Below are positions 6,100-54,177 of a stretch of DNA of 64,000 bases, piece after piece. The notes beneath the pieces were generated by a model, which was not told the origin of the DNA, made no database searches, and was given only the letters and a program-made list of their open reading frames with translations. Numbering within the stretch: the first letter of the stretch is position 1; the number at the start of each line of letters is the position of its first letter. Source of the DNA: a bacterium (GTDB lineage Bacteria > Patescibacteriota > Minisyncoccia > Phycocordibacterales > Zambryskibacteraceae). Location: the NCBI GenBank assembly GCA_030649135.1, contig JAUSGI010000004.1, positions 32,001 through 96,000 on the forward strand, given 5' to 3'. Made by a program: the position numbers and the translations under genes.

Positions 6100-6554
6100 C
6101 TATTATTTACACAGATGGGGCGTCGAGGGGAAACCCTGGACCGGGGGGGTGGGGGGCAATAATTTCGAACGACAATTCCGTGGTAGAAATTGGCGGAAGG
6201 GAAGAGCATACGACAAATAACCGCATGGAACTTACGGCGGCAATCAAAGCTCTAGAATCGACACCGGATAAAGAAGTTACCGTTTACGCGGATTCGGAAT
6301 ATGTGACGAAGGGCATGACCGAATGGATCAAGAGATGGCAACAGAAAGGCTGGAGGACGGCAGGTAAGAAGCCGGTACTCAGCCAAGATTTATGGCAGAA
6401 ACTCCTCGAGCTTACGGAGGGAAGACGAGTGGAGTGGAAATATGTGGCAGGACATGCCGGTGTGCCTCTCAATGAGCGCGCGGACGAGATAGCTACCACT
6501 TTTGCCGATAATCTTCTACCCAAACTTTATAATGGACCAAGAGGTAAGTACTAA
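6096..6554 (+). CDS. rnhA: ribonuclease HI
   Basis: TDGASRGNPGPGGWG, TNNRMEL and NERADE motifs; overlaps recJ stop by 4 nt. Confidence 0.9.
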   Translation: MTIIYTDGASRGNPGPGGWGAIISNDNSVVEIGGREEHTTNNRMELTAAIKALESTPDKEVTVYADSEYVTKGMTEWIKRWQQKGWRTAGKKPVLSQDLWQKLLELTEGRRVEWKYVAGHAGVPLNERADEIATTFADNLLPKLYNGPRGKY

Positions 6555-11043: not shown

Positions 11044-12420
11044 CTAGAGTCCGAGTTTCTGCTTCCATCGTTCCGCAACAGCCCTCGCTTTCTTGGGGGC
11101 GATGCCGATATAGAGTGATGGATTCGAGATGACGCTTCGCTGGCGTGGCGTCATCTTCTCGAGGTAGTCCGCCAACTCCGCATCACCCATGACCACCTCC
11201 TCGAGTGGTCGCGATTCGCGTCTAGCTTGGCGCGCCAGGATTCGCACCTTCTCGTGGGCATGAGAATGTCCCAGCGCGGAGAGAATGAGCTGTAACGGCT
11301 CGGCGGCAGTCCCTCCCTTCGTCATGTTGAGATTTCTCTGAAGGTTTTCATGGTTCACCGTGAGTTTATTCATCACTCTCGTCAGGCGTTTAGCCATGGA
11401 AAAGACGTAGGCCACAACCTCGCCATAAGTTCGGGCCGAGGCGGAGTTCGTGAGGTCGCGTTGGTGTTCGCTGATCTGATCAAGGAACACAGTAATGATG
11501 CGCGGCATGACGACCTTCCAGAGACTCTTGGCGTTCTCAAAGTTGATGGGGTTCATCTTCTGCGGCATAGTCGAGGAGCCGACCTGGTCCTCTTCGACTG
11601 GTTCTCCTACCTCAGCGATTTCTGTGCGCTGGAGATGGCGCATATCGTCGGCGAGATTGGCCAGTATGCCGGCAGTAATGGTGACTTCACAGAGAAGACG
11701 CGTCATCGCTTCGGGCGGTACAATCTGGGTTGAGTATTCGGCCGGGATGAGTCCCATCTCGGCAAGTACTTCAGCTTCGAAGACCTCTGGGTCGTCGAAG
11801 AAGAGCGAAGAAGCGTTGTATGCTCCGACTGCTCCCGAGAACTTCCCGGGGAGTTTATCAGCACGAAGCTTCAGCTCTTCGATTGAACCGCCGATGCGAC
11901 TGACGTACTCGGCGATTGCGAAGCCGAACGAGGTCGGGACCGCATGCTGACCATGGGTTCTTCCGGCTTGGGGTGTCTCGGCTTCGTTGTCGGCGAGTGT
12001 GATAAGGACTTTTTCCAACTCGATGAGCGCTGGGATGACCACAATTTCGACAACGTGCTTGTAGCGTGCAGCGTTGGCCGATTCGATGATATCGAATGAT
12101 GTTGCCGATAGATGGACAAACGGTTTCGCGCGATCGCTCAGTCTCGTCTGGATGCGATTCACGAGAGCTCGGATGTCATGCCCGATTCGACCTTCCTCAT
12201 CGTACACTTCTTCGGTCACGACTTCGCCACAGGCCGCCACGATTTCACGCAAAGTGTCTTCGGAGCAAACTCCCCGGCGCTCTAATACGGTTGCAAGTGC
12301 TCGCTCCACACGGAGCTTGTAACGGGTGAACCCGTTCTCGGAGAGATACTTCGCTACTTCGGCATCCCAGTATCGATAATCGATCGGTGAAAGGCTGTCG
12401 AACACATCACGCATTCTCAT
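11044..12420 (-). CDS. purB: adenylosuccinate lyase (G+C-rich gene)
   Basis: SPIDYRY (cf. SPLDGRY), GRTHGQHAVPTSFG and fumarate-lyase signature GSSTMPQKMNP; start taken at MRMRD (ORF opens at 12504). Confidence 0.85.
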   Translation of the reverse strand: MRMRDVFDSLSPIDYRYWDAEVAKYLSENGFTRYKLRVERALATVLERRGVCSEDTLREIVAACGEVVTEEVYDEEGRIGHDIRALVNRIQTRLSDRAKPFVHLSATSFDIIESANAARYKHVVEIVVIPALIELEKVLITLADNEAETPQAGRTHGQHAVPTSFGFAIAEYVSRIGGSIEELKLRADKLPGKFSGAVGAYNASSLFFDDPEVFEAEVLAEMGLIPAEYSTQIVPPEAMTRLLCEVTITAGILANLADDMRHLQRTEIAEVGEPVEEDQVGSSTMPQKMNPINFENAKSLWKVVMPRIITVFLDQISEHQRDLTNSASARTYGEVVAYVFSMAKRLTRVMNKLTVNHENLQRNLNMTKGGTAAEPLQLILSALGHSHAHEKVRILARQARRESRPLEEVVMGDAELADYLEKMTPRQRSVISNPSLYIGIAPKKARAVAERWKQKLGL

Positions 12421-12481
12421 ATCATCCTCCTGTAAAGGTGCGATTCTCGAAACAAAAACTTCGTGTTCCTCGCTAAACCTA

Positions 12482-12688
12482 TCAGTTTCCACCCATCTTT
12501 TCAATCAGCAGTCCGAGTTGCTCATGTATGACTTTTGCTTCGGCAAGGGTCACATTATTTTCCGTATTGGACGTGGGTCCTGATATAAAAATTGAGACTC
12601 CTTTGATACCTTCTATGTCTTTCGCACTTACTTGGACATCAATTGCGTTCCCAAGTTCGTTTATAAATTTTTTCTCGTATTTCTGCAT
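12482..12688 (-). CDS. hypothetical small protein (68 aa)
   Basis: A+T-rich ORF with plausible coding composition; no recognised motif. Confidence 0.3.
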   Translation of the reverse strand: MQKYEKKFINELGNAIDVQVSAKDIEGIKGVSIFISGPTSNTENNVTLAEAKVIHEQLGLLIEKMGGN

Positions 12689-18976: not shown

Positions 18977-19070
18977 CTTTTAATACGGAAAATTTGACAT
19001 TGTGATTAGTTTGTGACAGAGTGAAAGTAGACGTACGGCCCTGCGGGCCAAATTCAAGGAGGACACTATC

Positions 19071-19337
19071 ATGTTGCGTTGGGGTGCTATGCTCTTCATC
19101 GGCGTGCTGATCTTTCTGTGCGGGGTGTTTGTGTCAGACAGGTGGGTGGTCGTCGGTAAGGCAGAGGCCATATCATCCGGCCGTCCACACTGTCAGGCGT
19201 ACATGGACCACGCCGTTCGGGCGGTCCAGGAAAGTGAGCATCAGTATGGAGCGCCGAACTACGCGAAAGCAGTAGCATCGACGGCCTGGAGTGCCATCTA
19301 CCGTAACTGCATGGGGGGGGCCCTACTAGTCCGGTAA
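19071..19337 (+). CDS. hypothetical small membrane protein (G+C-rich cassette, first gene)
   Basis: AAGGAGG SD 8 nt upstream; one TM helix; a G8 tract lies in its 3' end. Confidence 0.35.
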   Translation: MLRWGAMLFIGVLIFLCGVFVSDRWVVVGKAEAISSGRPHCQAYMDHAVRAVQESEHQYGAPNYAKAVASTAWSAIYRNCMGGALLVR

Positions 19338-19442
19338 GGGACTTCCAATGCGCTAATCTTTTTTCATGTTCGCCGCCGGTCTGCTTACCCAGACCGGCTT
19401 TATTATTTCTTACTTTGAAGATTGCACATTCAGAATTTTCGG

Positions 19443-19471
19443 TTGACGAATTTTATATTAAGTCTTATAAT
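19443..19471 (+). promoter_or_regulatory. sigma70-like promoter TTGACG-N17-TATAAT for the 19522 ORF
   Basis: ttgacgaattttatattaagtcttataat gives exact -35/-10 spacing. Confidence 0.5.
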
Positions 19472-19521
19472 ATAGGAAGGAACGAACACGAGTTAACCCT
19501 CTATCCATAAAGGGGGAAGAG

Positions 19522-19803
19522 ATGAAAAAGGTTATCGTCCTCTTACTGCTTCTCGGCACCGATTACTGGATTGACCAAGACAACCGAATCATCTTCGGCA
19601 GGACGCCGAAGATCGTGAACGAGATTTGCTTCATGAGGGGAGGGGCGTTTTTCGGAAAAAACGGCAGAAGGCTCGTCTGGGCCGACGGCTGTCATGACCC
19701 GTGGGACGATGTAATGATTCTCCCGCTCGAGGCCCGGAGCCCCGAGCACTACATTCACAGGCACGAACTCAAGCACCGTCTCGACGGTGCTTGGCATGAC
19801 TGA
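19522..19803 (+). CDS. hypothetical secreted small protein (G+C-rich cassette, second gene)
   Basis: signal-peptide-like MKKVIVLLLLLG; GGGGAAGAG SD. Confidence 0.4.
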   Translation: MKKVIVLLLLLGTDYWIDQDNRIIFGRTPKIVNEICFMRGGAFFGKNGRRLVWADGCHDPWDDVMILPLEARSPEHYIHRHELKHRLDGAWHD

Positions 19804-19814
19804 CAATGAGGGAG

Positions 19815-19850
19815 CTGGACCCCCGGCACGCACGCGTGCCGGGGTTTTCG
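19815..19850 (+). terminator. hairpin terminator ending the fusA|tuf cassette
   Basis: ccccggcacgcacgcgtgccgggg followed by a T-run. Confidence 0.55.
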
Positions 19851-19991
19851 CTGGATTGACTATTTCTGCCCTTTTGTATACCATAGCCCTTACGCGTTAA
19901 CGTTTGTTGGTACTTTGATATTTTCTTCATAGACCATATAGCGGTTTAGTGCGTTAAAACATTAATATCTATTCAATAATAATTTACTAAT

Positions 19992-21185
19992 ATGGCAGCA
20001 GAATTTGATCGCTCCAAACCGCACATCAACGTAGGCACCATCGGCCACGTTGACCACGGCAAGACCACTCTTACCGCGGCTATTCTTAATGTGCTTCACC
20101 GCGCAGGCAAGAATGCCACGATTAAGAGCGTTGACCAAATCGATAACTCTCCGGAAGAAAAAGCTCGGGGCATTACCATCGCCCTTTCCCACTCGGAATA
20201 CGAGACCGACTTGCGCCACTACGCACACGTTGATGCTCCCGGCCACGCGGACTACATAAAGAACATGATTACCGGTGCCGCCCAAATGGACGGAGCTATT
20301 CTCGTGGTTGCCGCTACCGATGGTGTGATGCCTCAGACTCGCGAACACATTCTGCTTGCCAAACAGGTTGGAGTGCCGAAGATTGTAGTTTTCCTCAACA
20401 AGTGCGACATGGTTCCCGACAAGGAACTCATTGCTCTAGTCGAAGAAGAAGTTCGCGACCTCTTGAAGAAATATGACTATGACGGTGCCAATGCGCCGAT
20501 TATCCAAGGTTCGGCCCTTAAAGCTCTGGAAGCCACCGGTATTGACGACGAATGGTCAAAGAAAATCTTGGAACTTACAGATGCTCTCGACACCTATTTC
20601 CCAATTCCGGTGCGCGAAACCGACAAGCCATTCCTCATGCCTATTGAAGACATCTTCTCCATTGAAGGCCGCGGCACGGTTGTGACCGGTCGTATCGAGC
20701 GAGGCAAGGTGAAAGTGGGTGAAGAAGTCGAAATTGTGGGTATCAAGGATACTGCCAAAACTACGGTGACGGGTATCGAGATGTTTAACAAGTCTCTCCA
20801 AGAGGGTCTGGCTGGAGATAATGCCGGCGTTCTCTTGCGAGGTGTGAAGAAGGAAGATTTGCACCGAGGACAAGTCTTGTCCAAACCTGGTTCCGTTACC
20901 CCTCATACCAACTTTACTGCCGAGGTCTACATTCTGAAAAAGGAAGAAGGTGGTCGACACACGCCATTCTTTACCGGCTACAAACCGCAGTTCTACATTC
21001 GTACTACTGACGTAACCGGAGAAGTTACTTTGGCTGAAGGTGTAGAGATGGTTATGCCCGGAGATACCGCCACCTTTACGGTTAAGCTGGTTGCGCCTGT
21101 CGCTCTCGAAAATGAACAGCGCTTTGCCATCCGCGAAGGTGGTAAGACTGTCGGAGCCGGCGTGGTTACCAAAGTCATCGCGTAA
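19992..21185 (+). CDS. tuf: elongation factor Tu
   Basis: [14 protein letters not shown] and DAPGHADY; 397 aa. Confidence 0.95.
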
Positions 21186-21190
21186 ATTAC

Positions 21191-21583
21191 GTGCCCAAAA
21201 AAGTACCTCTAAAACCAAAAAGGGTTCTTAAACCTAAAGTTCCTAAGGCTCCCAAAGTTCCCAAAGCGGAAGAAGTAACCTCGCGTCTGCGTATCCGAGT
21301 GATGGCTTATGAGTCCAAGCTTTTGGACCTCTCGGTCAAACAAATCATAGACACAGCACTCCGTTATGACGCCAAGGTGCAAGGTCCGATTCCTCTGCCA
21401 ACGGGAATCAAGAAATACACGGTTAATCGTGCCGCATTTATCTACAAAAATGCGCGTGAGCAGTTCGAGATGCGGATTCACAAGCGGTTAATCGATATTC
21501 TGAATCCCACTCCCAAGATTATCGAGTCGCTCACCAACTTGAGTTTGCCGAGTGGGGTCAACATTGATGTCAAGCTCATATGA
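21191..21583 (+). CDS. rpsJ: ribosomal protein S10 with Lys/Pro-rich N-terminal extension
   Basis: RLRIRVMAYESKLLD...GPIPLPT core, preceded by a ~27-aa KPK-repeat extension. Confidence 0.9.
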   Translation: MPKKVPLKPKRVLKPKVPKAPKVPKAEEVTSRLRIRVMAYESKLLDLSVKQIIDTALRYDAKVQGPIPLPTGIKKYTVNRAAFIYKNAREQFEMRIHKRLIDILNPTPKIIESLTNLSLPSGVNIDVKLI

Positions 21584-22053
21584 AAAAGCTTATTGCCAAG
21601 AAGGTAAATATGACCCAAATTTTCGGCGAAACCGGGGAGGTTTACCCTGTGACTGTGGTCATGCCAGTAGAAAAAGGTCAGACCTTAAGTACTGATTCCC
21701 AAGGTCTGACCTTGGATACTGGCGACGATTTCCAGGAGGGTGAAATGGTCAATGTCTCCGGTACATCGAAAGGCAAGGGTTTCCAGGGAGTAGTTAAGAG
21801 GCACAAGTTTGAAGGCGGCCGCCGCTCGCACGGACAGAAACATTCCGAGCGTGAAGCGGGTTCCATCGGCGGCGGCGGCCGCGCGGGAGGCCGGGTCATC
21901 AAGGGTATGCGCATGGCTGGTCGGATGGGCAACGAGCGAGTGACGGTCAAGAACCTGAAAATTATCAAGATTCTTCCCGAAACACGAGAAATCTTCATTC
22001 AGGGAGCCATTCCCGGCCGACGAGGCAGTACGGTTGAGATTAAAGCCAGATAA
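21580..22053 (+). CDS. rplC: ribosomal protein L3 (short, 157 aa)
   Basis: KKVNMTQIFGETGE...GTSKGKGFQGVVKRHKF...GMRMAGRMGNERVTV; lacks an internal ~50-aa segment relative to E. coli L3. Confidence 0.85.
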   Translation: MKKLIAKKVNMTQIFGETGEVYPVTVVMPVEKGQTLSTDSQGLTLDTGDDFQEGEMVNVSGTSKGKGFQGVVKRHKFEGGRRSHGQKHSEREAGSIGGGGRAGGRVIKGMRMAGRMGNERVTVKNLKIIKILPETREIFIQGAIPGRRGSTVEIKAR

Positions 22054-22057
22054 AATT

Positions 22058-22705
22058 ATGGACGCAACAGTCTATAGCATCGATGGCAAGAAGTCCGGTA
22101 CGGTATCCCTGCCGGAGAACGTCTTCGGTATTCATTGGAACGCTGACTTGGTCAAACAAGTGGCAGATTCACTGCTTTCAGCAAAGCGTAAAAATGTTGC
22201 CCACACCAAGGACCGAAGCGAGGTGCGGGGTGGAGGCAAGAAGCCGTGGAAACAGAAAGGTACCGGTCGCGCGCGGCACGGTTCCATCCGTTCTCCCATC
22301 TGGGTGGGTGGCGGTGTGACCGGTGGCCCGAGAAATGAAAAAAATTTCGAGCGTAAGGTTTCAAAGAAAATGAGGACCAAGGCACTCTACACCATTCTCT
22401 CCCGCAAATGGCATGATGGCGAAATACTTTTTGTTGATTCGGTGGCGCTTGCCGAGCCCAAGACGAGAGTGGCCGTGAAGGCCCTCCAGTCTCTCTCTGG
22501 CATCAAGGGGTTTGAAAGTATTTTTTCGAAGAGAAACAACGCAACAGTTATCGCTCTGTCGGGTAAAAATAAGGAAACCGAACGCGCCTTCGATAATCTC
22601 GGTAATATTGAAGTGGTCGAAGCAAGAAACTTAAACCCTCTCTTGCTGCTTGAGCACAAATATTTAATAATCGAGAATCCCAAATTGATTTATGGCAAAT
22701 CTTAA
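22058..22705 (+). CDS. rplD: ribosomal protein L4
   Basis: L4-like; S10-operon position; start taken at MDATVYS. Confidence 0.85.
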   Translation: MDATVYSIDGKKSGTVSLPENVFGIHWNADLVKQVADSLLSAKRKNVAHTKDRSEVRGGGKKPWKQKGTGRARHGSIRSPIWVGGGVTGGPRNEKNFERKVSKKMRTKALYTILSRKWHDGEILFVDSVALAEPKTRVAVKALQSLSGIKGFESIFSKRNNATVIALSGKNKETERAFDNLGNIEVVEARNLNPLLLLEHKYLIIENPKLIYGKS

Positions 22706-22985
22706 TTTAAAGCCGAATAATGTTCTCTTGCGCCCTCGTATTACCGAGAAGGCCGCTTTGGGAGCCGACAAGTCCAATGTCTATGTTTTTGAGGTGACAA
22801 CGGACGCCACCAAAAAGTCCATCAGCGCTTCCGTTCGCGATGCTTACGGAGTGACGCCCAAACAGGTGCATGTTGCCGCCATTCCTTCCAAACGAGTTTT
22901 TGTCCGGGGCAAAAGAGGGGTAAAGGGTGGAGGCAAGAAAGCGTATGTCTATCTGAAGAAGGGGGATAAAATCGAACTAATATAA
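22692..22985 (+). CDS. rplW: ribosomal protein L23
   Basis: LLRPRITEKA N-terminus; 97 aa. Confidence 0.9.
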   Translation: MANLNLKPNNVLLRPRITEKAALGADKSNVYVFEVTTDATKKSISASVRDAYGVTPKQVHVAAIPSKRVFVRGKRGVKGGGKKAYVYLKKGDKIELI

Positions 22986-23824
22986 TGAAAAAGTACCGAC
23001 CAACAACAGATTCCCGTCGCCATATGTCTGGCATAGACTTCCGCAAGATTCTTACTTCAGATAAACCTGAAAAGTCTCTGACTAGTGGCTTCAGGCGTGG
23101 TACCGGTCGGAATAATCGTGGTCGTATTACCACTCGGCATAAAGGCGGGGGTCATAAACGTCTTTTTCGGGAGGTTGATTTTTCCTACGATAAGTATGAC
23201 GTACCCTTTACCATAAAGACCATCGAATATGATCCCAATCGTTCCGGTTTTATCGGGCTCGCGGTCTACCGAGACGGGGAGAAGAGATATGTGCTTTTGC
23301 ACAATAGCGCGCGAGTCGGGCAAACTTTTGTGGTTTCCGAGAATGCTCCACAAGTGCCTGGTAATCGTTTGCCTCTCGGCAATATCTCTGTCGGCACTTT
23401 TGTTTATAACGTTGAACTTAAACACAAGGGTGGCGCGAAAATTGCCCGCTCTGGAGGTGATTATGTAGAAATATTGGCTAAGGAGGGGGGCTTTGTTGAT
23501 TTGAAAATGCCTTCAAGCGAGGTGCGTAAAGTGCCTATTAACGCCTGGGCCTCTATCGGGGAAGTTTCTAATAATGAAAATCGTTTGGTAACCATCGGCA
23601 AGGCCGGTCGTTCACGTTGGCTTGGTATCCGCCCACACGTCCGCGGTACCGCTATGAATCCGGTAGACCATCCGCACGGAGGTGGAGAAGGCCGTTCCGG
23701 CCGAGGTCGCAGGCGTGCTATTTCTTACTACGGTAAACCGACTGGCAAGGGTCAGAAATCTCGCCGAACCAAAAAATATTCAAACAAGTTTATGGTCAGT
23801 CGCCGAAAAGTAGGGAAGAGGTAG
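22985..23824 (+). CDS. rplB: ribosomal protein L2
   Basis: GRNNRGRITTRHKGGGHKR and HGGGEGR motifs. Confidence 0.95.
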   Translation: MKKYRPTTDSRRHMSGIDFRKILTSDKPEKSLTSGFRRGTGRNNRGRITTRHKGGGHKRLFREVDFSYDKYDVPFTIKTIEYDPNRSGFIGLAVYRDGEKRYVLLHNSARVGQTFVVSENAPQVPGNRLPLGNISVGTFVYNVELKHKGGAKIARSGGDYVEILAKEGGFVDLKMPSSEVRKVPINAWASIGEVSNNENRLVTIGKAGRSRWLGIRPHVRGTAMNPVDHPHGGGEGRSGRGRRRAISYYGKPTGKGQKSRRTKKYSNKFMVSRRKVGKR

Positions 23825-23896
23825 GTAATGTTGACGCCAGCTTCTCGTTAGTGTATAATGTAGGTAGGAGTACCAAGAATTACCAGGAGGGGGGAC

Positions 23897-24322
23897 ATGA
23901 CAGTTGCGGGAACGTTGTTTAACAAGTTGTTGAGGGTGTGCGGCAAGCGGGTGGTCGACTCCGCTAGCAACAGGAAGGAGTTCGTCGACAACGGCACCTT
24001 GTTTCCGGTGCCCAACATCGGCCAGGAGATGTACCTATTCCCGGTCACTCGCCGTCTCACCGGTGATGAGGCAGAGGACGCCTATGCATCTTTTGGCCTC
24101 GAAGCTGCCGGGTGGGAGGAGCTCGCTCTGGCCAATGACGCCAACCCTGCCATGGCGTCAGAGAGACCCAACGCCACTCAATGGCGGGATCGGGGGCGGT
24201 GGTGCTACATCACCTTCTCCGAGCCTGGGGAGAACTATCTCCTTCGGGCGGGGAAGGTCGATAGGTGGGACCCCGGGTGGTGGCTCGCAGGTCGTCCCAT
24301 CAAGTGGGACGAGTACCGGTAA
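23897..24322 (+). CDS. hypothetical protein (G+C-rich cassette at the rplB|rplJ junction)
   Basis: extended -10 TGTATAAT and CAGGAGGGGGG SD upstream; W-rich 141-aa product; hairpin terminator follows. Confidence 0.4.
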   Translation: MTVAGTLFNKLLRVCGKRVVDSASNRKEFVDNGTLFPVPNIGQEMYLFPVTRRLTGDEAEDAYASFGLEAAGWEELALANDANPAMASERPNATQWRDRGRWCYITFSEPGENYLLRAGKVDRWDPGWWLAGRPIKWDEYR

Positions 24323-24362
24323 TTCGGGGTCTGGGCGTTCGGACAGTCGTCCGAACGCCCTT
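24322..24362 (+). terminator. perfect hairpin terminator
   Basis: gggcgttcggacagtcgtccgaacgccc followed by ttttcgttt. Confidence 0.6.
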
Positions 24363-24479
24363 TTCGTTTGTATACTTGCATTAAATTTTTATTCCTGTAA
24401 GGTATTTCTCCATAAGGTCAAAGACAGTAGGCATCCATAAGCCCTACCGAGACTAAACCACTCTGGCCTTATTAAATTA

Positions 24480-24968
24480 ATGGCCATTTCGAAAGCCAAA
24501 AAGGGAGAAGTGCTCACGAAGCTTAAGGCGGCCTTCAAAAGTGCCAAGTCTTTGGTGTTCATTAACTTTAAGGGCTTGAATGTGGCCAATGCCACTCAAA
24601 TGCGCCGTGCTCTCAAAAGTGAAGGTATTTCTTACACGGTTGCCAAAAAGACTCTAACCAACTTAGCGCTTGAGGGAGAGAAGTTTCAGGGCACAGCACC
24701 AGTGCTCGAAGGTGAGTTAGCTCTTGCGTGGGGAGAAGACTTGGTGGCTCCGGCTCGCGGAGTTTATGGTTTCCAGAAAAAGTTTCCGGAGAGTCTCAAG
24801 ATTATGGGTGGAGTCTTCGAAGGTCGTTTTATGACGGCAGTCGAAATGGAGGAGATTGCCCAGATTCCTACGCTCGAGGTGCTTCGCGGCAAGTTCGTCA
24901 ATATTATTAATTCCCCGATACAGCGCTTTGTGATTGGGCTTAATGAAATTAGTAAGATTAAGAGTTAA
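24480..24968 (+). CDS. rplJ: ribosomal protein L10
   Basis: L10-like N-terminus MAISKAKKGEVLTKLKAAFKSAKSLVF; directly upstream of L7/L12. Confidence 0.85.
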   Translation: MAISKAKKGEVLTKLKAAFKSAKSLVFINFKGLNVANATQMRRALKSEGISYTVAKKTLTNLALEGEKFQGTAPVLEGELALAWGEDLVAPARGVYGFQKKFPESLKIMGGVFEGRFMTAVEMEEIAQIPTLEVLRGKFVNIINSPIQRFVIGLNEISKIKS

Positions 24969-24972
24969 AAAC

Positions 24973-25386
24973 ATGGAAGATACACAAAATACAAATACCG
25001 AAATAGTTAAGGAAGTTCCTACAAAGTTCAAAAAGATTGTTGAAGAAGTTGAGACCATGTCGGTACTTGAACTCAATGAACTGGTGAAAGTTTTCGAAAA
25101 CAAGTTCGGAGTTTCTGCTACAGCTGTAGCCGCGCCCGCCTCCGCGCAAGGCTCCGGCGAGGCAATAGAAGAGAAATTGACAGCAAGCGTGGAGCTCACT
25201 AATAGCGGTGCCAACAAAATCGCCATCATCAAGGTGGTCAAAGAAGTGCTCGGCCTCGGTCTCAAAGAAGCTAAGGACCTCGTCGATGCTGCTCCCTCGA
25301 TGCTTAAAGCAGACATGAAGAAAGAAGAGGCAGAAGCGCTCAAAAAGCAGATAGAAGACGCTGGTGGTAAAGTGACGCTCAAGTAG
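24973..25386 (+). CDS. rplL: ribosomal protein L7/L12
   Basis: C-terminal KVVKEVLGLGLKEAKDLVDAAP...EEAEALKKQIEDAGGKVTLK. Confidence 0.9.
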   Translation: MEDTQNTNTEIVKEVPTKFKKIVEEVETMSVLELNELVKVFENKFGVSATAVAAPASAQGSGEAIEEKLTASVELTNSGANKIAIIKVVKEVLGLGLKEAKDLVDAAPSMLKADMKKEEAEALKKQIEDAGGKVTLK

Positions 25387-25398
25387 TAGAATGGGCGC

Positions 25399-25956
25399 AT
25401 GAAATCCGTTTCCCACATCTTCGGCGGAGAGGCCAAAGTAAAGATTATGCGCCTGTTTATCTTTAACCCAGGTCTCACTTTTACTTCCGCTGAAGTGGCC
25501 CACCGTGCCAAAGAGAGACCTCATACGGCCCGCAAGGAACTTAGAATTCTCGCCAAGGCGGGTCTCATCAAGCGACGCACGAAGGGCTTTGCTCTCAACT
25601 CTTCCTACCTGTATCTTCCCGCGATTGAAAATTTTCTGATAGATGCCACGCCCATCACGGAGAAAGAGATAATCCAGAAAGTTTCTCGCGCCGGCAACAT
25701 CAGACTTGTCTTAATTTCCGGTGTCTTTCTACATGACCGTGATTCTCGTGTGGACATCCTCGTCGTGGGGGACCATCTCAAAGGAGCCAAACTCTTGTCG
25801 GCTATATCATCGATTGAAGCTCTCTTGGGCAAGGAGTTGCGTTATGCCGCTTTCGAGACCGCCGATTTCCGATATCGTCTGGGTATCTACGACAAGCTTA
25901 TTAGAGATATTCTGGACTACCAGCACGAGAAGATTCTTAATAAATTGGGTATTTAA
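25399..25956 (+). CDS. winged-helix regulator-like protein
   Basis: N-terminal HTH-like segment (TSAEVAHRAKERPHTARKELRILAKAGLIKR); C-terminal domain of unknown function; CCCCGCC-TTGG-CGGGG hairpin follows. Confidence 0.4.
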   Translation: MKSVSHIFGGEAKVKIMRLFIFNPGLTFTSAEVAHRAKERPHTARKELRILAKAGLIKRRTKGFALNSSYLYLPAIENFLIDATPITEKEIIQKVSRAGNIRLVLISGVFLHDRDSRVDILVVGDHLKGAKLLSAISSIEALLGKELRYAAFETADFRYRLGIYDKLIRDILDYQHEKILNKLGI

Positions 25957-26116
25957 CCCCGCTTCACCCCGCCTTGGCGGGGCAAGCGGCGGGGCAGGAT
26001 TATCCACACCCCAATAAACCTCGTATTTTATAGGTGTATAATGAATCGCGTACCCCTTTTAGAGTGGTCACAATTAGAAGCTAAGTGCATTTGCACAGAC
26101 ATCGAGCTAAGAATAT

Positions 26117-26815
26117 ATGTTATTAAACACATGGGGAGAAGTGCTAACCCTTTCCTTCCAGAATCTTTGGGTAGGAGTGGTTAACTTTGTCCCGAACCTT
26201 GTTATTGCTATCGTCATCCTTATCCTAGGATGGTTAGTTGGCGCGCTTATCGGCCGAGCAATTTGGCAAGTGTTCAAGTCTCTGAAAGTTGATGACGCTC
26301 TTCGCCAGGCGGGATTCGACTCTTTTGTGCGTCGTGGAGGTATTGACCTTGATTCCGGCGCGTTTGTTGGTGGTTTGGTGAAGTGGTTTGTGATAGTGAT
26401 GTTTTTAGTGGCAGCTCTGGATGTTTTAGGCCTTTCACAAGTCAACTTCTTCCTCCAAGACGTAGTACTTGGCTATTTGCCTCGTGTACTCGCTGCGGCT
26501 TTGGTTCTCTTGGTGGCTGGCGTTATCGGTGATGTCACCGGACGTGTGGTTGTCACAGCAGCTCGGACGGCAGGTATTGATTCAGCACATTTTGTGGGTG
26601 CTGTGGCCAAGTGGGCCATCTGGATTTTCGCCATTCTCGTAGCTCTTTCCCAACTGGGTATTGCTGCGGCGTTTAGTCAGACTCTCTTCACAGGCATTGT
26701 CATCGCGGTCTCTCTCGCCCTCGGTCTCTCCTTCGGTCTCGGCGGACAGGAAGCGGCATCTCGCTTCCTCGAAAAGCTTCGCGGAGAAATGAGTGGTAAA
26801 AACCACAACGGTTAA
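26117..26815 (+). CDS. integral membrane protein with repeated conserved-TM-helix units (mechanosensitive-channel-associated type)
   Basis: repeated ~30-aa hydrophobic helix units; terminator hairpin at 26860-26890. Confidence 0.5.
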   Translation: MLLNTWGEVLTLSFQNLWVGVVNFVPNLVIAIVILILGWLVGALIGRAIWQVFKSLKVDDALRQAGFDSFVRRGGIDLDSGAFVGGLVKWFVIVMFLVAALDVLGLSQVNFFLQDVVLGYLPRVLAAALVLLVAGVIGDVTGRVVVTAARTAGIDSAHFVGAVAKWAIWIFAILVALSQLGIAAAFSQTLFTGIVIAVSLALGLSFGLGGQEAASRFLEKLRGEMSGKNHNG

Positions 26816-26996
26816 CCTCGAGGTATTACTTAGCTAGATAATACCCGGATAATCTGTAGGGAAGAGCCCGTTTTCGGGCTCTTTTCTGTTCTATTGACTT
26901 TTAAACCTCATTGTGATATGATTAGGGCAGGATGGGCATTGGCCCATAAGACGATCTTCGTTTACTACCTTCAAGGCTACACCTTAGGAGAGTGTC

Positions 26997-27506
26997 ATGA
27001 GCGTAGTGGAGAAAGCCGAACTCTCGCCAATCCTGGGTAGCGTACCGGTCGTGATGTTTTTCTTCAACGTCACCGACAAGAGGCTCGTGCCTTGGTGGGC
27101 GAAGACCGTGTCGGGCCTCGAGCAGAAGCCGGCCACCGAAGGTCAGCCCTCCGGTGTCGAGTTGATCAGGGGCAAGCACGTGAATCTCTATTCCGTTCTC
27201 GACGAGATCGGAGAGCAGGGATTCATTCCGGTCCGGCTCCTCGTCATCGAGAGGGGTCAAGGTAGGGTTCGTATGGCCCTGGTGTGCGTTCACTCGGATC
27301 ACCTGAAAGAGGGCGATCGACGGATGCCCCGGAGAGAGGAAGCTGATGTACGGGGGCTTCTCAAGAAGCTCTGGGACGTTCGGGTTCATCGTAACCCGGG
27401 CGAGCACGGAGGGAACTTCATCATCGGGTGTGCCTACCCGGCGATGGGGAATTCCAGGGGCAAGCTGCTCGTCGCCGACGGGCAGTTCCGGTTGGAGACG
27501 AAGTAG
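26997..27506 (+). CDS. hypothetical protein (G+C-rich cassette upstream of rpsS)
   Basis: AGGAGA SD; 169 aa; GC hairpin at 27513-27552. Confidence 0.4.
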   Translation: MSVVEKAELSPILGSVPVVMFFFNVTDKRLVPWWAKTVSGLEQKPATEGQPSGVELIRGKHVNLYSVLDEIGEQGFIPVRLLVIERGQGRVRMALVCVHSDHLKEGDRRMPRREEADVRGLLKKLWDVRVHRNPGEHGGNFIIGCAYPAMGNSRGKLLVADGQFRLETK

Positions 27507-27613
27507 CTGTGAGGTCTGGACCGGGGGCGCAACGCGCGCTCCCGGTCCTTTACTTTTTACGTTGATTTATATACTATATCCCGCATAGCTCGCTCGAGCT
27601 TTTTCATTTAATA

Positions 27614-27955
27614 ATGACCAGGTCATCTAAAAAAGGTCCATACGTCGACCCTCGAGTACTCAAGAAGTTAGAGGGCAAAAGCCCCACGACCGCTGGGGTT
27701 ATAAAGACGTGGTCGAGGGCCTGCCAAATTGCTCCGGAGATGGTTGGTTTTACCTTCGGGGTTCATAATGGTAAGGACCACGTAGCGGTGTTTGTCAGCG
27801 AAGACATGGTCGGACATCGCCTTGGCGAGTTTTCGCTAACGCGCAAATTTACAAGACACGGCGGTAGAATGCAGAAGGACCTTGAACAGAAGCAAAAGGA
27901 GTCCGAAATTGCTGCCGCTAAGGCAGTCAAGGGTGCGGCGGAATCAAAGAAGTAG
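27614..27955 (+). CDS. rpsS: ribosomal protein S19 with C-terminal extension
   Basis: SSKKGPYVD...GHRLGEF core. Confidence 0.9.
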
Positions 27956-27980
27956 ATTCAAGATTTAGAATTTAAGATTT

Positions 27981-28316
27981 ATGAATGAAGCAACAGCACA
28001 ACTTAATAACTACCGACAATCTCCACGCAAGGTGCGTTTAGTGGTGGATACTCTGCGTGGCAAAAAAATAGAGGAAGCAATTACTCTACTCTCGTTTATC
28101 CCAAGGCGTTCCGCCCTGCCACTTCAGAAACTTTTGACCTCGGCTTTGGCAAATGCCAAAGACCTTGCTTTGCCTACGGAAGATTTAATTGTCAAAGAGA
28201 TTAGAGTTGATGCCGGTGGCACCCTTTACCGCCGCCGCCCGCGTTCGAAAGGTATGGCCAACCCGATTCGTAAAAGGACGTCGCGTATTCGCGTAACGCT
28301 TGCTCCCAAGAAATAA
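27981..28316 (+). CDS. rplV: ribosomal protein L22
   Basis: L22-like; operon position. Confidence 0.9.
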   Translation: MNEATAQLNNYRQSPRKVRLVVDTLRGKKIEEAITLLSFIPRRSALPLQKLLTSALANAKDLALPTEDLIVKEIRVDAGGTLYRRRPRSKGMANPIRKRTSRIRVTLAPKK

Positions 28317-28317
28317 T

Positions 28318-28974
28318 ATGACACACACAGTACATCCATATTCACATCGTCTTGGTATCCTGCGGGATTGGAAATCGCGTTGGTTTGCGCCGAAGGGTAA
28401 ATACAAATACATTTTGCGTGGTGATATTTTGATTAGGCAATATTTGGAGAAGAAACTTAAAGGATTTTTCGTGGCCGATGTTGAAATAGAGAGAAGTGAG
28501 AAGTCCTTGCGCATTATTGTCAGCTCCTCTCGTCCGGGCATGATTATCGGCCGTCAAGGTGACGGCGCGGAATTGCTTCGTAAAGAAATTAAGTCATTCC
28601 TTTTGAAACATAAATTACTTGAGGAAAAAGTGGACGTCAGGCTCGACATCAAAGAAATTAAATCGGCCGAGACCAATGCCGCCATCGTGTCGCAGATGAT
28701 AGTCGAGGGATTGGAGAAACGTTTGCCGTTCAGAAGGGTGATGAAGCAGATGCTTGAGAAGGTCATGGCTAATCGCGACGTGCTCGGGGTGCGAATCTTT
28801 CTGGCTGGCCGCTTGGGTGGTGCCACTATGAGCCGCACGGAAGACCGCAAGCTCGGCCGTATTCCTTTGCAGACTCTGCGCGCTGATGTTGACTACGCTC
28901 TTACCAAAGCAGTAATGCCCTACGGCACTATTGGGGTCAAGGTTTGGATATATAAAGGCGATATATTTAAATAA
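28318..28974 (+). CDS. rpsC: ribosomal protein S3
   Basis: KH-domain GMIIGRQG; start at MTHTVHPY. Confidence 0.9.
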   Translation: MTHTVHPYSHRLGILRDWKSRWFAPKGKYKYILRGDILIRQYLEKKLKGFFVADVEIERSEKSLRIIVSSSRPGMIIGRQGDGAELLRKEIKSFLLKHKLLEEKVDVRLDIKEIKSAETNAAIVSQMIVEGLEKRLPFRRVMKQMLEKVMANRDVLGVRIFLAGRLGGATMSRTEDRKLGRIPLQTLRADVDYALTKAVMPYGTIGVKVWIYKGDIFK

Positions 28975-28975
28975 C

Positions 28976-29392
28976 ATGCTCTTTCCCAAAAAAGTTAAAC
29001 ATCGAAAGTGGCACACCATGCGAAGGAATCCATCGAGGGTCTCCGTGGCCACTCGTGGACTCTCGGTAGCGTTCGGCTCGTATGGATTGAAGGCACTCGG
29101 CTCCGCTCGTATCCGCTCCAATCAAATTGAATCTTCGAGGAAAGTCTTATCTCGCTCTGTAGGTAAGACCGGTCGCTTCTGGATTCGAATTTTCCCGGAC
29201 ATGCCTTATACCACCAAGCCTGCGGAAGTGAAGCTCGGTAAGGGCAAGGGAGATTTGGCAGGTTATGCGGCGCCGGTTCTCCCCGGTAGAATCATTTTTG
29301 AGGTAGACGGTATCAGCGAGGTAGATGCCCGGGAAGCGCTTCGTAAAGCGGGTACTAAACTACCGGTCAAGACTAAAGTAGTAGCCAGATAG
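28976..29392 (+). CDS. rplP: ribosomal protein L16
   Basis: MLFPKKVKHRKWH N-terminus. Confidence 0.9.
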   Translation: MLFPKKVKHRKWHTMRRNPSRVSVATRGLSVAFGSYGLKALGSARIRSNQIESSRKVLSRSVGKTGRFWIRIFPDMPYTTKPAEVKLGKGKGDLAGYAAPVLPGRIIFEVDGISEVDAREALRKAGTKLPVKTKVVAR

Positions 29393-29416
29393 TTCGACAA
29401 GCTCACCATAAATAAT

Positions 29417-29599
29417 ATGAAGAAAACTATCTACATCGGCAAATCAAAACAGGATTTGGTAAAAGCCCTCGGAGAGAGGCGAGAAATTTTGCGTAAACTA
29501 AGATTCGGAGCTTCCGGTTCCAAGACCCGCAATGTGAAAGAAGGTATGGTTATCAGAAAAGATATTGCCCGTATCATGACTGAACTTAATAAAGCGTAA
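29417..29599 (+). CDS. rpmC: ribosomal protein L29
   Basis: 60-aa helical protein in canonical position. Confidence 0.85.
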   Translation: MKKTIYIGKSKQDLVKALGERREILRKLRFGASGSKTRNVKEGMVIRKDIARIMTELNKA

Positions 29600-29600
29600 T

Positions 29601-29849
29601 ATGGAAACTGACAAAACAAAAAAGCCCCAAATTTTTTCCGGCACGGTAGTCTCGGATAAAATGAAAGACACTATCGTGGTCTCGGTCGAGCGCTATGAAA
29701 AACATCCCCGATATTCCAAATTCATCAGGCGACGTAAGAAATTCAAGGTGCATGACGCTGGTAATACCGCCAAGGTGGGTGATAAAGTACAAATCATCGC
29801 TACTAGGCCGATATCGAAGGATAAAAGTTTCAAATTGTTAACTTCCTAA
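29601..29849 (+). CDS. rpsQ: ribosomal protein S17
   Basis: GTVVSDKMKDTIVVSVER...; canonical position. Confidence 0.9.
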   Translation: METDKTKKPQIFSGTVVSDKMKDTIVVSVERYEKHPRYSKFIRRRKKFKVHDAGNTAKVGDKVQIIATRPISKDKSFKLLTS

Positions 29850-29852
29850 GCC

Positions 29853-30224
29853 ATGATTCAACCACAATCCATTGTGCAAATAGCAGACAATTCCGGGGCA
29901 AAACTCGGTCGCGTTTTCAAGGTGCTTGGAAGCTCAAAAAAACGCTACGCTTCCATCGGAGAGCTGGTGGTGCTCTCGGTTCAAAAGGCCGAACCCAGGA
30001 AGCTGGTAAAGAAAAAGGATATTCTTTACGGGATAGTGGTGAGACAAAGGGCGCCTTTCCGACGCAAGGATGGTACGTATGTACGTTTTGACGAAAATGC
30101 CGTGGTTATCCTGGATAGTACCAAAAAGGAGCCAATGGCGGGCCGAGTTTTCGGCCCGGTACCCAGAGAAATTGGCGAAATGGGATTCCAGAAAATTATT
30201 TCTTTAGCGCCGGAAGTAGTTTAA
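29853..30224 (+). CDS. rplN: ribosomal protein L14
   Basis: [17 protein letters not shown]. Confidence 0.95.
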
Positions 30225-30229
30225 ATATC

Positions 30230-30454
30230 ATGCATGTAAAAAAGGGAGACAACGTAATAGTTTTAACGGGAAAAGATAAAGGTAAGATTGGTAAAATCTT
30301 GCGCGCCTTTCCAAAACAAGACCAAGTGCTGGTGGAAGGGGTGAATACCAAAAAGGTTCACGAACGGCCGAAAAAGAGTGGCGCCAAAGGTACCATTATC
30401 GAAAAGAATTTTCCCATTCACGTCTCTAATGTAAAAATCCATGGAAAATCTTAG
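30230..30454 (+). CDS. rplX: ribosomal protein L24
   Basis: [23 protein letters not shown] motif. Confidence 0.9.
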
Positions 30455-30953
30455 AGAAAAATCAAAAACGATTCCGGGTTATAAAAACCCCATGCAGGCG
30501 CCACGAGTTTTGAAGGTGGTGGTCTCTTCCGGAGTCGGTTCATTTAAAGACAAGAACAAATTTAAAGTAGTGGAAGACCGTCTGGCGCGTATTACCGGAC
30601 AGAAAGCAGCCCCACGAGGAGCTAAAATTTCGATCGCTACTTTCAAATCTCGACAAGGAGACATTGTGGGCTACCAAGTAACTTTGCGTGGCAAGCGTAT
30701 GTACGATTTTTTGGACAGATTAGTACATCTTGCCCTTCCGCGCACCAAAGACTTCCGTGGTATTTCCCCGAACGCTGTTGATGAGATGGGCAATTATACT
30801 TTGGGTATCAAAGAACACAACATTTTTCCCGAAACTTCCGACGAAGAGCTTAAAGACGTCTTCGGTCTCGCTGTGACCATCGTCACTACCGCCAAGTCCA
30901 AAGAAGAAGTGCTCGCTTTCCTTGCCCATCTCGGTTTCCCGTTCAAGAAGTAG
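30441..30953 (+). CDS. rplE: ribosomal protein L5
   Basis: L5-like; canonical position. Confidence 0.95.
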
Positions 30954-30984
30954 AAGTTATCTACATTATATAAAATAGAAAAAT

Positions 30985-31015
30985 CCCCGCGCACAGTGCT
31001 CTGTGCGCGGGGGTC
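30985..31015. terminator. bidirectional hairpin between rplE (+) and the HNH gene (-)
   Basis: ccccgcgcacagtgctctgtgcgcgggg. Confidence 0.55.
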
Positions 31016-31033
31016 TGAAATTGTGACGGATAG

Positions 31034-31630
31034 CTATGAGTCCGACAGGATGCGAACATCCGCTTCTGCCGTCGGGCCCTTTTGTGTCAGGAAAGCGATG
31101 GCGCGGGCGAGTAACGCCGGGCTGTCCCGGAACATGGATAGTCCCATGTTGCAGAGCTTGCAGAGCAATGCCATTCTTCTCGCGCCGTAGTGCGCCGCCC
31201 CATAGAGCGAAAGTGGCAATGCCTGCCCAATCTCATCGCATGAGGTTTCGGGCTGGCTGCAGATCGCGCACCGACCACCCTGCTTCTTGAAGAGTTCATT
31301 GTAGTGACCGTTCATTTTCACGGCAGGGTGCGGATGGGTCTGCGCAAGTGGCGGAGCTGCTGATATGACAGCAGGCAATCCCGTGCTCACACCATCGTGG
31401 AGCTTGCAGTTTTGTCTGGTCCTGATGCTACCCCCATATGGGTATGTCCCAAACTCCTCGATTGGCCTGTTTTCTCCGCACTCCTTGCAAGGTCTTGTTT
31501 CCATACCAACCTGCTTTCCTTCCTGAACGTGAAGGTTGCAATCTCGCTGTGCACGACCTCCCGCACCAAGCTTGAAACTGTCCAATGGCCTCATTTTCTC
31601 GCACTTAATGCAGTATCTTTTCCCTCCCAT
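31034..31630 (-). CDS. Endonuclease-VII/HNH-type zinc-finger nuclease (free-standing, G+C-rich) inserted between rplE and rpsN
   Basis: multiple CxxC pairs; C-terminal GHYNELFKKQGGRCAICSQPE...AHYGARRMALLCKLCNMGLSMF matches the Endo VII pattern (W/Y..Q.G.CaiC...H.G..RGLLC..CN.GLG.F). Confidence 0.6.
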   Translation of the reverse strand: MGGKRYCIKCEKMRPLDSFKLGAGGRAQRDCNLHVQEGKQVGMETRPCKECGENRPIEEFGTYPYGGSIRTRQNCKLHDGVSTGLPAVISAAPPLAQTHPHPAVKMNGHYNELFKKQGGRCAICSQPETSCDEIGQALPLSLYGAAHYGARRMALLCKLCNMGLSMFRDSPALLARAIAFLTQKGPTAEADVRILSDS

Positions 31631-31729
31631 GCCATGCTCCCTTCTTTAGGGACGGCAACCAATATGGTCGTCTGAACTTGAGTCTGGCGCGAATCCTACA
31701 TTGTGTCCACGGGTATGGCAAGTCTAAGG

Positions 31730-31758
31730 TTTGACAATACCCCTTTCAGTTGATAAGC
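31730..31758 (+). promoter_or_regulatory. re-start promoter TTGACA-N17-TAAGCT for rpsN and downstream spc genes
   Basis: ttgacaatacccctttcagttgataagct lies downstream of the convergent HNH insertion. Confidence 0.45.
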
Positions 31759-31795
31759 TGAAACGCGAGCTTTTCGAAGCTTTTTTAGTTTAATT

Positions 31796-41060: not shown

Positions 41061-41469
41061 TGGTGGAGATGGCGCGAATCGAACGCGCGTGCAAGAAGAA
41101 ATCGGAGTGAAGTCTACGCGAAGTAGTTTGCTTCATTTGATTCAAGAAATGAGGTACAAAACAAACAAAAGCCCTCAAATCTCTATCCTCTAAGTTTTGA
41201 AATAAGGCGAGGAGATCTTATTCCGTAAGTCCCGTCTGAATTACACAGCTTCCCGGGCATGAGACACTCCCAGAGGCTACGTCGCAAGGCTCGAGTTAAA
41301 CTCGAACGTAAGCGAAAGCGAAGTCGTTTCTCGTAAAATACGGAGAAACAATTGACTTCACTCGTGAGACAATTGAGTCTGCACTTAAATTTTGAAGCAG
41401 ATTAAAGAGTTACTTCAGCTCTTTCGCGCATCAATCCGATGAATCTCCCTGTCTAGGCCGATCATCCCC
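41061..41469 (-). ncRNA. ssrA: tmRNA (SsrA), adjacent to smpB
   Basis: minus-strand 5' GGGGATG pairs with 3' CATCTCC-A-CCA, giving a G3·U70 Ala identity pair; T-arm GCGCG-TTCGATT-CGCGC precedes the acceptor; candidate tag ORF AAC GAC TTC GCT TTC GCT TAC GTT CGA GTT TAA parallels the E. coli AAC GAC ... TAA frame; ends approximate. Confidence 0.6.
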
Positions 41470-47356: not shown

Positions 47357-47430
47357 TCCACCCTCTTGGATTCGAACCAAGGACCCCAGAGGTATAAGCT
47401 CTGTGCTCTAACCAGCTGAGCTAAGGGTGG
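47357..47430 (-). tRNA. tRNA-Ile with anticodon UAU
   Basis: minus-strand cloverleaf CCACCCT-TA-GCTCAGCTGGTTAGAGC-A-CAGAG-CTTATAC-CTCTG-GGGTC-CTTGG-TTCGAAT-CCAAG-AGGGTGG-A; perfect 7-bp acceptor; anticodon loop CUUAUAC; CCA not encoded. Confidence 0.75.
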
Positions 47431-52568: not shown

Positions 52569-52590
52569 AATCGTCGGCCAGTCTTCTATG

Positions 52591-52947: not shown

Positions 52948-53063
52948 GTGGCCTCCCGGCGCGCCTGAATTTCATTCCTCTCATATTATACCATATATCA
53001 ATATATTATACAAGTAGATAAGGTGCTCATTTTTTAGTGATAAGGTATGAGAGGAGGTGTGAT

Positions 53064-54109: not shown

Positions 54110-54138
54110 GTTTGTAAGTGCCCCAAATTTGTGGGATA
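54110..54138 (+). promoter_or_regulatory. conserved promoter/operator motif, copy 1 (dinB)
   Basis: GTTTGTAAGTGCCCCAAATTTGTGGGATA; a -10 TGTATAAT follows. Confidence 0.55.
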
Positions 54139-54177
54139 GGGTCGGAACAGGAATATAGTCCGCTGTATAATGCTCGG

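Follow-up and report, generated by a model that had tools for sequence, protein, structure and literature searches.

We examined a 64-kb window, the whole stretch of contig JAUSGI010000004.1 analysed here (GC 46.2%), from an uncultured Parcubacteria/Paceibacterota bacterium of the Candidate Phyla Radiation (CPR). On its forward strand, open reading frame (ORF) translations give the gene order rpsL-rpsG-fusA-tuf-rpsJ-rplCDWB ... rpsS-rplV-rpsC-rplP-rpmC-rpsQ-rplNXE-rpsN-rpsH-rplFR-rpsE-rplO-secY-adk-map, the str/S10/spc ribosomal protein cluster. Four blocks, A to D, interrupt this cluster and carry five small G+C-rich ORFs, each led by a Shine-Dalgarno (SD) sequence and closed by a hairpin (Table 1). 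An original prediction, made from the letters alone, had read these cassettes as repeated lateral acquisitions, with a phage or a high-GC host or partner organism as possible sources. We consider it likely that the occupied junctions are permissive hotspots at transcription-unit borders, which hold unrelated, self-contained accessory genes that turn over, and that the composition of these genes is long-lived and does not stem from a single recent high-GC import.

Table 1. Blocks, ORFs and predicted expression signals in the ribosomal protein cluster of the window
Feature	Position	Strand	Size	Limits and signals
Block A	18977-19855	+	879 bp	fusA stop to tuf promoter; two units, A1 and A2
A1	19071-19337	+	88 aa	SD AAGGAGG; terminator hairpin 19375-19398
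A2	19522-19803	+	93 aa	promoter 19443-19471 (11/12); terminator 19821-19844
Block B	23824-24373	+	550 bp	rplB stop to rplJ promoter/leader; promoter 23831-23859; SD CAGGAGGGGGG; terminator 24333-24360
B	23897-24322	+	141 aa	
Block C	26846-27561	+	716 bp	MscS-like gene to rpsS promoter; promoter 26894-26922; 5' untranslated region about 70-75 nt; SD AGGAGAG; terminator 27518-27548
C	26997-27506	+	169 aa	
Block D	30953-31772	-	820 bp	rplE stop to rpsN promoter region; antisense to the operon; terminator 31012-30985
D	31034-31630	-	198 aa	
rplJ-rplL-HTH-MscS-like block	24480-26815	+		between rplB and rpsS; ordinary GC; context, not a cassette; identified with Pfam

Composition and expression signals of the cassettes

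All five predicted ORFs are found, and for each of them the GC at third codon positions (GC3) exceeds the highest value of the backbone. For the 31 backbone genes from 15.2 to 36 kb, GC is 0.480±0.031 and GC3 is 0.513±0.050 (maximum 0.594), against GC3 values of 0.685 for A1, 0.723 for A2, 0.761 for B, 0.765 for C and 0.618 for D (z = 2.1 to 5.0). Composition and codon usage are hence not uniform, and the codon choice of the cassettes is qualitatively distinct: AGG/CGG, GGG, AAG, AAC and ATC are used more often and CGC less often than in the backbone. This codon dialect is not displayed by the highly expressed ribosomal genes.

The cassettes also differ from the backbone in their translation signals. 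In backbone genes, including those for ribosomal proteins, fusA and tuf, SD sequences are essentially absent and start regions are A/T-rich, whereas the strong SD sequence that had been claimed for each cassette is present throughout, with duplex energies of -7.3 to -11.7 kcal/mol (-11.4 for A1) versus a window median of -3.1. Among GC3-rich ORFs, 60% have a strong SD sequence, as against 9% of all remaining ORFs (Mann-Whitney p = 0.002).

With regard to transcription, promoters and terminators were called as consensus matches (sigma-70 for promoters). The top three promoter matches between 15 and 34.9 kb lie directly 5' of A2, B and C (11/12, 11/12 and, with a TG extension, 10/12), so that the claim that cassettes often have their own -35/-10 elements holds for these three; the promoter of A1 is weak, with no convincing candidate, and D has a 9/12 match only. 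The GC-rich closing hairpins were located correctly to within a few bases, and in the 20 kb scanned the terminators ranked 1 to 4 and 6 are those of C, D, B, A2 and A1, respectively. One correction concerns D, which lies on the minus strand. Altogether, the observation of GC-rich, SD-led cassettes is far beyond chance.

The cassettes are related neither to one another nor to other GC-rich ORFs of the window. Searches of Pfam, PHROG and PADLOC return no match for A1, A2, B or C, and known RNA families (Rfam) are absent from all four blocks. The families of the cassette proteins were separated by an exhaustive HMMER search of 1.84 billion representatives.

Empty and alternative sites in related genomes

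A scan with ribosomal protein L2 yields 80 rplB-anchored loci, whose named matches are overwhelmingly metagenome-assembled genomes (MAGs) of Parcubacteria, Paceibacterota or other Patescibacteria; the nearest named match shares 89% L2 identity with the window. Loci of related genomes are referred to by codes with the letter L, L001 being an independent Logan assembly of SRR13727527. Block borders were obtained by blastn of the window against relatives, and the same breakpoints are recovered each time in comparisons with L082, L099, L002, L004 and L005.

The site of block A comprises 20 bp in L099, where fusA leads straight into the conserved tuf promoter, and a different 429 bp in L002. The site of block B is reduced to 5 bp in L082, to which the window is most closely related in this stretch (S19 95% and S3 96-98% identical), and holds at the same breakpoints 695 bp in L002, which form a GC-rich cassette for a YkuD L,D-transpeptidase (GC3 0.70 vs 0.40) with its own promoter and terminator. 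At the site of block C, L082 carries C and L002 has 66 bp; at that of block D, L002 has 60 bp versus the 820 bp of the window. GC-rich cassettes with other genes occur in L002, L005 and L007. Between the window and L099, whose ribosomal proteins are 92-95% identical, the proteins encoded by the cassettes share 46% identity for B and less than 25% for the C-like protein, and the GC3 of these two L099 genes is 0.88 and 0.77, respectively, vs about 0.55.

With their identical breakpoints, these empty and alternative sites are comparative evidence of gain, loss and allele replacement. They bear out the idea of discrete insertions at gene junctions, as sites are empty for A in L099, for B in L082 and for both C and D in L002. 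The related claim, that the interrupted junctions are normally contiguous, stands for fusA|tuf and rplE|rpsN, which are empty in relatives; it fails for rplB|rplJ, which is not a normal adjacency, the rplJ-MscS-like block being itself inserted between rplB and rpsS.

A rival explanation would be an assembly or binning chimera, in which foreign GC-rich fragments were joined to a Parcubacteria scaffold. The window does derive from a MAG and its composition switches abruptly, both of which would be expected of a chimera. Because L001 is 100% identical to the window over 1722 bp, reaching from rplW through rplB and B to the terminator, the B junction is not an assembly artefact, and the chimera that the original prediction had named as a possible refutation is cleared at this site. 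At the other junctions it is unlikely, since relatives share their architecture. The same architecture recurs with related cassettes in many independently assembled genomes, and the blocks are placed exactly between upstream gene ends and downstream promoters; as a whole, a chimeric origin is extremely improbable.

Junction hotspots in the ribosomal protein cluster

The junctions that are occupied in the window are frequently occupied in its relatives. Gaps of at least 300 bp are present between rplB and rpsS in 45 of 61 loci (median gap 791 bp), between rplE and rpsN in 29 of 50, between fusA and tuf in 25 of 35, between rpsJ and rplC in 23 of 61 and between rpsG and fusA in 13 of 30, and they are rare or absent at the remaining junctions of the 80 loci. 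The 315 gap ORFs (minimum 50 aa, some of the shorter ones probably spurious) fall into 276 clusters with 250 singletons, and a few families are present at two different hotspots. Among the contents recognized by Pfam are DAGK, pyrF, pyrD, MazF, IS200 transposase, reverse transcriptase (RT), DUF559, YkuD, M15 peptidase and CHAP. These comparisons indicate that fusA|tuf, rplB|rpsS and rplE|rpsN are lineage-wide permissive sites with very diverse content.

The hotspot junctions are evidently boundaries between transcription units, because the downstream ribosomal units keep their own promoter in filled and empty sites alike. The str/S10/spc cluster counts among the most conserved bacterial gene orders, yet recurrent self-contained insertions are tolerated at a few fixed junctions within it. 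Chromosomal integration hotspots flanked by core genes are a concept reportedly set out by Oliveira et al. (2017), and the present sites resemble them in that a few intervals between conserved genes hold diverse accessory genes across genomes. They differ in their location inside the normally contiguous str/S10/spc cluster, in having no integrases or mobile-element hallmarks, and in the dominance of C in one interval. Our literature searches uncovered no earlier account of the junction hotspots or of C and its family. For CPR bacteria, a major uncultured lineage, the hotspots provide a simple map of genome plasticity.

A fast-evolving gene family upstream of rpsS

Protein C corresponds to the NCBI hypothetical protein Q7R69_00805 (from a MAG, encoded on a 98-kb contig) and belongs to a family of roughly 25-30 representatives, of which every source-named or context-checked member is from CPR bacteria; a metagenome scan for C adds one short locus only. 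In 9/9 contexts examined, the gene is found immediately upstream of rpsS (window, L082, L083/84, L085, L006, L092/93, L094/95 and L096), and the partial locus L091 is consistent with this placement. Conservation of the same ORFs at their junctions, which had been proposed as evidence against acquisition, is thus found in part, for C. Each C homologue comes with its own promoter, an untranslated region (UTR) of about 70-80 nt, an SD sequence and a GC-rich terminator. The 5' UTRs (26923-26996 in the window; also L082, L083, L092, L094 and L096) have in common a small GC hairpin in which the changes look compensatory (GGGCATTGGCCC, AGGCAAATTGCCT, AGGCAGTGCCT), and a TTCCAC(C/T)TT motif just 5' of the SD sequence is common to the UTRs of the family. 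Hairpin and motif may together constitute a regulatory leader.

In 8/8 neighbour-controlled comparisons the C homologues are GC-rich, with a GC of 0.53-0.61 vs 0.41-0.48 for their hosts. Their GC3 is 0.72-0.81 in seven genomes, where neighbour means are about 0.35-0.50, and 0.53 vs 0.31 in L006. The proteins are only about 30% identical across subtypes, and the genes flanking C have synonymous divergences (dS) between these genomes that range from about 1 to saturation. Over such distances the composition of a neutral import at the same site would have converged on that of the host, so C is no recent import. The GC-richness of the gene would rather be maintained, or else C would be resupplied continually from a pool outside those observed. 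The ratio of non-synonymous to synonymous divergence (dN/dS) is 0.22-0.30, about ten times that of the neighbours, and this marks C as a real, selected and fast-evolving coding gene.

The divergence of C does not track that of its hosts: the C proteins of L083 and L085 share 74% identity, against 81% for S3, and those of the window and L082 share 70%, against 98% for S3. In addition, neither L002 nor L004 carries C, and ribosomal protein identity places both of them among the carriers. At the C site, L099 encodes a GC-rich protein of 176 aa whose relation to C would be very remote at best and is not demonstrable (hhalign 4%), and L005 encodes a protein for which remote C-family homology is suggestive (hhalign 58%). 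In sum, sequence comparison points to allele replacement and loss at a fixed position. A confident structure model of C has no match to a solved or viral fold.

A C-type-lectin-fold gene beside rplB

More than 290 proteins, of about 200 aa, make up the family of B; none of them contains a Pfam domain, and all source-named members are from CPR bacteria (Kaiserbacteria, Pacebacteria, Patescibacteria). The family fold is C-type-lectin-like (CLec), the kind that diversity-generating retroelements (DGRs) target, and its variable region (VR) is at the C-terminus. DGR variable proteins with a C-type-lectin fold include Mtd of a Bordetella phage and TvpA of Treponema, and DGRs are reportedly abundant in CPR bacteria (Paul et al. 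2017). The literature searches likewise returned DGRs in CPR bacteria (see also PMC11661182 and PMC8144416).

Two family members connect B to such systems. In L088, the gene of member P0256 has a 92-nt copy of its own 3' end 478 nt downstream (5576-5667 and 6054-6145); 12 of the 13 mismatches between the two copies fall on adenines in the downstream one, the hallmark of a DGR's VR and its template repeat (TR). This pair lies downstream of polA, its template contains Asn (AAC) codons, and no RT is encoded within 5 kb of it. In L086, member P0187 adjoins an RT with a GxxxSQ motif. B itself is short and is devoid of the family's N-terminal 80 or so residues; neither a TR for B (blastn and an adenine-tolerant scan) nor an RT is present in the 64-kb window. 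Variability among B, P0007 and P0012 peaks in the segment equivalent to the VR, although the divergence between alleles spans the whole protein.

The L099 homologue of B is likewise short and occupies the same rplB|rplJ junction. At the DNA level, positions 6280-6372 of L099 can still be aligned with the final 14 codons of B plus the terminator (24281-24373), the remainder of the gene being similar in protein only, at the identity given above, and a recombination breakpoint may lie inside the cassette. A gap protein of L007 was considered as a further relative of B and rejected.

The remaining cassettes and the question of a donor

A1 has an N-terminal hydrophobic helix, and the exhaustive search retrieves no homologue but itself, which would make it an orphan small membrane protein. 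The family of A2 comprises about eight small proteins, most of them with a lipobox (lipoprotein-type signal), and is characterized by two conserved cysteines and an HE-x-KH-R motif; A2 is predicted to be a small secreted-type protein. One member, P0131, is encoded on a 43-kb phage-like contig together with an SNF2 helicase, a PDDEXK nuclease, AAA_24, an Acb2/Tad1-like protein and many small ORFs. D combines two N-terminal Cys-rich (zinc-ribbon-like) modules with an endonuclease VII (HNH-type) domain, which matches Pfam PF02945 above the gathering cut-off (E = 5e-8) and PHROG phrog_2633 (1.4e-15). It also matches 111 phage records with endonuclease VII or HNH annotations at 25-30% identity, as well as two IMG/VR contigs, and no second copy of D is present at rplE|rpsN in the 80 loci. 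D thus appears to be a phage-type endonuclease VII gene of the homing-endonuclease-like kind. Like the free-standing phage homing endonucleases of the endonuclease VII/HNH type, it joins this domain to zinc-ribbon-like DNA-binding modules and stands alone between two conserved genes, with an empty site in L002; D differs from them in its place within a bacterial ribosomal operon.

These genes bear on the model of a recent transfer from a high-GC host or partner, or from a phage, whose GC excess would not yet have drifted to the level of the host. Such an origin would account for a composition, codon dialect and SD usage unlike those of the backbone, for the phage-type nuclease D, for the relative of A2 on a phage-like contig and for the lack of A, B and D in close relatives. 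A phage source, as originally suggested, accordingly keeps some standing for D and A2. It does not extend to B and C: in 50,697 phage records neither B, C nor A2 finds a match, and IMG/VR contains none for B, A2 or the C-family profile. A high-GC host or partner as the source of B and C is contradicted by the CPR origin of all source-named or context-checked members of both families. The phage-like contig that carries P0131 is itself not GC-rich (0.48), and C has a high GC at one and the same site in eight genomes, the flanking genes of which have diverged to the extent described above. We therefore regard recent transfer as unlikely for the cassettes as a set; a non-CPR high-GC donor or a phage origin is possible for A2 and D, and contradicted for B and C.

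Turnover, maintenance and alternative explanations

Our preferred reading, that of permissive transcription-unit borders, can be outlined as follows. The str-S10-spc cluster would be split into several transcription units, the borders of which collect small accessory genes that turn over throughout the lineage. Expression of the cassettes would probably leave the essential genes undisturbed, as these could restart from their own downstream promoters. Following DNA uptake, the conserved ribosomal flanks might serve as arms for homologous recombination and so allow exchange; nucleases such as D possibly help in this process, and D could promote conversion at its own site. The SD sequences may follow from GC-richness, as a structured leader could not make use of the unstructured A/U-rich starts on which the backbone appears to depend. 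The GC-rich, SD-led composition belongs to the accessory gene class and is long-lasting.

Several observations weigh against this reading. Promoters and terminators of the cassettes are predicted signals, and A1 could be a non-functional ORF. The exchange mechanism is deduced, and at the block flanks no repeats, target-site duplications, attC-like sites, integrase or transposase are found. Hotspots are not generally GC-rich, the mean GC3 difference of the relatives' gap genes being -0.045; most gap contents are not GC-rich, so hotspot residence alone fails to explain the composition. Lastly, in the closest pair (window vs L082) the dS of C equals that of its neighbours (0.65 vs 0.65-1.8), which fits vertical co-inheritance over that interval and not frequent exchange.

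The last point leads to a serious alternative for C, namely a native gene maintained by selection. According to this model B, and especially C, are inherited vertically, their GC3 and SD sequences are kept by selection, for instance on the stability or structure of a monocistronic mRNA or for a specially regulated class of SD-dependent translation in an organism poor in SD sequences, and their absences are losses. The dS of C in the closest pair is joined here by its dN/dS, which is that of a selected coding gene, its position upstream of rpsS in all nine contexts examined, the conserved layout of promoter, UTR, SD sequence and terminator with the TTCCAC motif, a GC3 of about 0.75 across deep divergence, and the presence of SD sequences in GC-rich genes but not in the backbone. 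The divergence of C is nevertheless out of step with that of its hosts, and its absence from L002 and L004 interrupts a series of carriers. Ordinary translational selection offers no explanation either, as the highly expressed ribosomal genes do not share the codon dialect, and A1, A2 and D are not covered by the model. We see vertical inheritance under selection as possible, if on balance rather doubtful, for the cassettes concerned.

GC-biased gene conversion, through which frequent recombination at the hotspots and biased mismatch repair would raise the GC3 of the highly polymorphic cassettes, is another candidate. Recombination-associated elevation of GC3 in bacteria is reportedly an established proposal (Lassalle et al. 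2015), and both the hotspot behaviour with allele replacement at fixed sites and an excess located mainly at third codon positions would fit it. The flanking arms (3' ends of rplB, rpsS, rplE and fusA) are not elevated in GC3, however, most hotspot genes of the relatives are not GC-rich, and the avoidance of CGC in the codon dialect is unexpected under a simple GC drive. We consider this process very unlikely to be the cause.

A bolder proposal, to which we give little credence, is that C is a site-locked and rapidly diversifying module of the ribosomal cluster, as may be the short B subfamily at rplB|rplJ, and that a GC-rich dialect and SD sequences are actively maintained in these modules within an AT-leaning genome poor in SD sequences. 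If true, they could represent a class of translation under separate regulation, or else a sensor or conflict system linked to the ribosome, in which a new fold (C) stands beside a DGR-type ligand-binding fold (B). Irrespective of this, two families are worth experiments, C upstream of rpsS and the DGR-type lectin-fold gene beside rplB. The contrast in GC3 and SD usage over flanks as short as about 100 bp is a natural test of selection, biased conversion and a circulating gene pool against one another in reduced genomes.

Returning to the preferred reading, accessory units of comparable design are known from other systems. Phage morons are extra transcription units of the Hendrix type in lambdoid prophages; like them, the cassettes are single genes with their own promoter and terminator and a deviant G+C content, placed between genes that are adjacent in relatives. 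Unlike morons, they are located in a CPR ribosomal protein cluster, in a region without phage structural or integrase genes, and the deviant composition of the C family persists over deep divergence. Integron cassettes are also small single-gene units with a foreign-looking composition and a 3' inverted repeat, but the present units have their own promoters, and their 3' hairpins are mutually unrelated, ordinary terminators without attC consensus, integrase or array. An integron reading was rejected given that the block ends share no repeats, that own promoters are present and that no integrase ORF lies between 15 and 36 kb. A transposon or insertion sequence (IS) was likewise rejected, as neither terminal inverted repeats, target-site duplication nor a transposase was found at the blocks.

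Other features of the window and related loci

Between rplB and rpsS, the block of rplJ, rplL, a helix-turn-helix (HTH) gene and an MscS-like gene is kept in L002, L004, L005, L082, L083, L092, L094 and L099; rplJ and rplL usually reside in the rplKAJL-rpoBC cluster. In L083 (3599-4270, minus strand) and L084, an IS200-type Y1 transposase and a 129-aa unidentified gene lie between rplL and the HTH gene. After rplE, L083 carries genes for an M15 peptidase and a NUDIX protein, and L085 a CHAP-domain gene.

Several ribosomal proteins of the window are peculiar. In the segment 21191-22053, S10 has a Lys/Pro-rich N-terminal extension and L3 is short (157 aa). L15 (33856-34128) is just 90 aa long and overlaps the longest secY ORF, the true start of secY probably being further downstream, and there is no L30 gene between rpsE and rplO. 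Rfam matches in the whole window are limited to a tmRNA (41061-41469, minus strand) and two tRNAs (47357-47430, minus strand; 62667-62753, plus strand).

GC-rich genes are not confined to the ribosomal operons. Genes with a GC3 of 0.62-0.80 also lie at 11044-12504 (minus strand), 49673-50356 (minus strand), 51260-51535, 52588-52968 and 53359-54039, and all except 52588-52968 have a strong SD sequence. This set includes an adenylosuccinate-lyase-like gene that matches the phage family phrog_1703, an HD/PDEase-like phosphohydrolase gene (phrog_16069) and three genes without a family. The genes at 51260-51535 and 53037-53330 are paralogues with 32% identity, and L002 has other DNA in place of the segment 11000-14920. 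A low-GC island (55407-62131; GC 0.32-0.37) immediately follows a DinB/ImpB polymerase gene (54118-55410). It encodes an AAA_15/AbiEii-like ATPase, a LexA-like repressor and an 839-aa protein in which a C5-cytosine and an N6-adenine methyltransferase are fused, and it probably serves in restriction-modification or defence.

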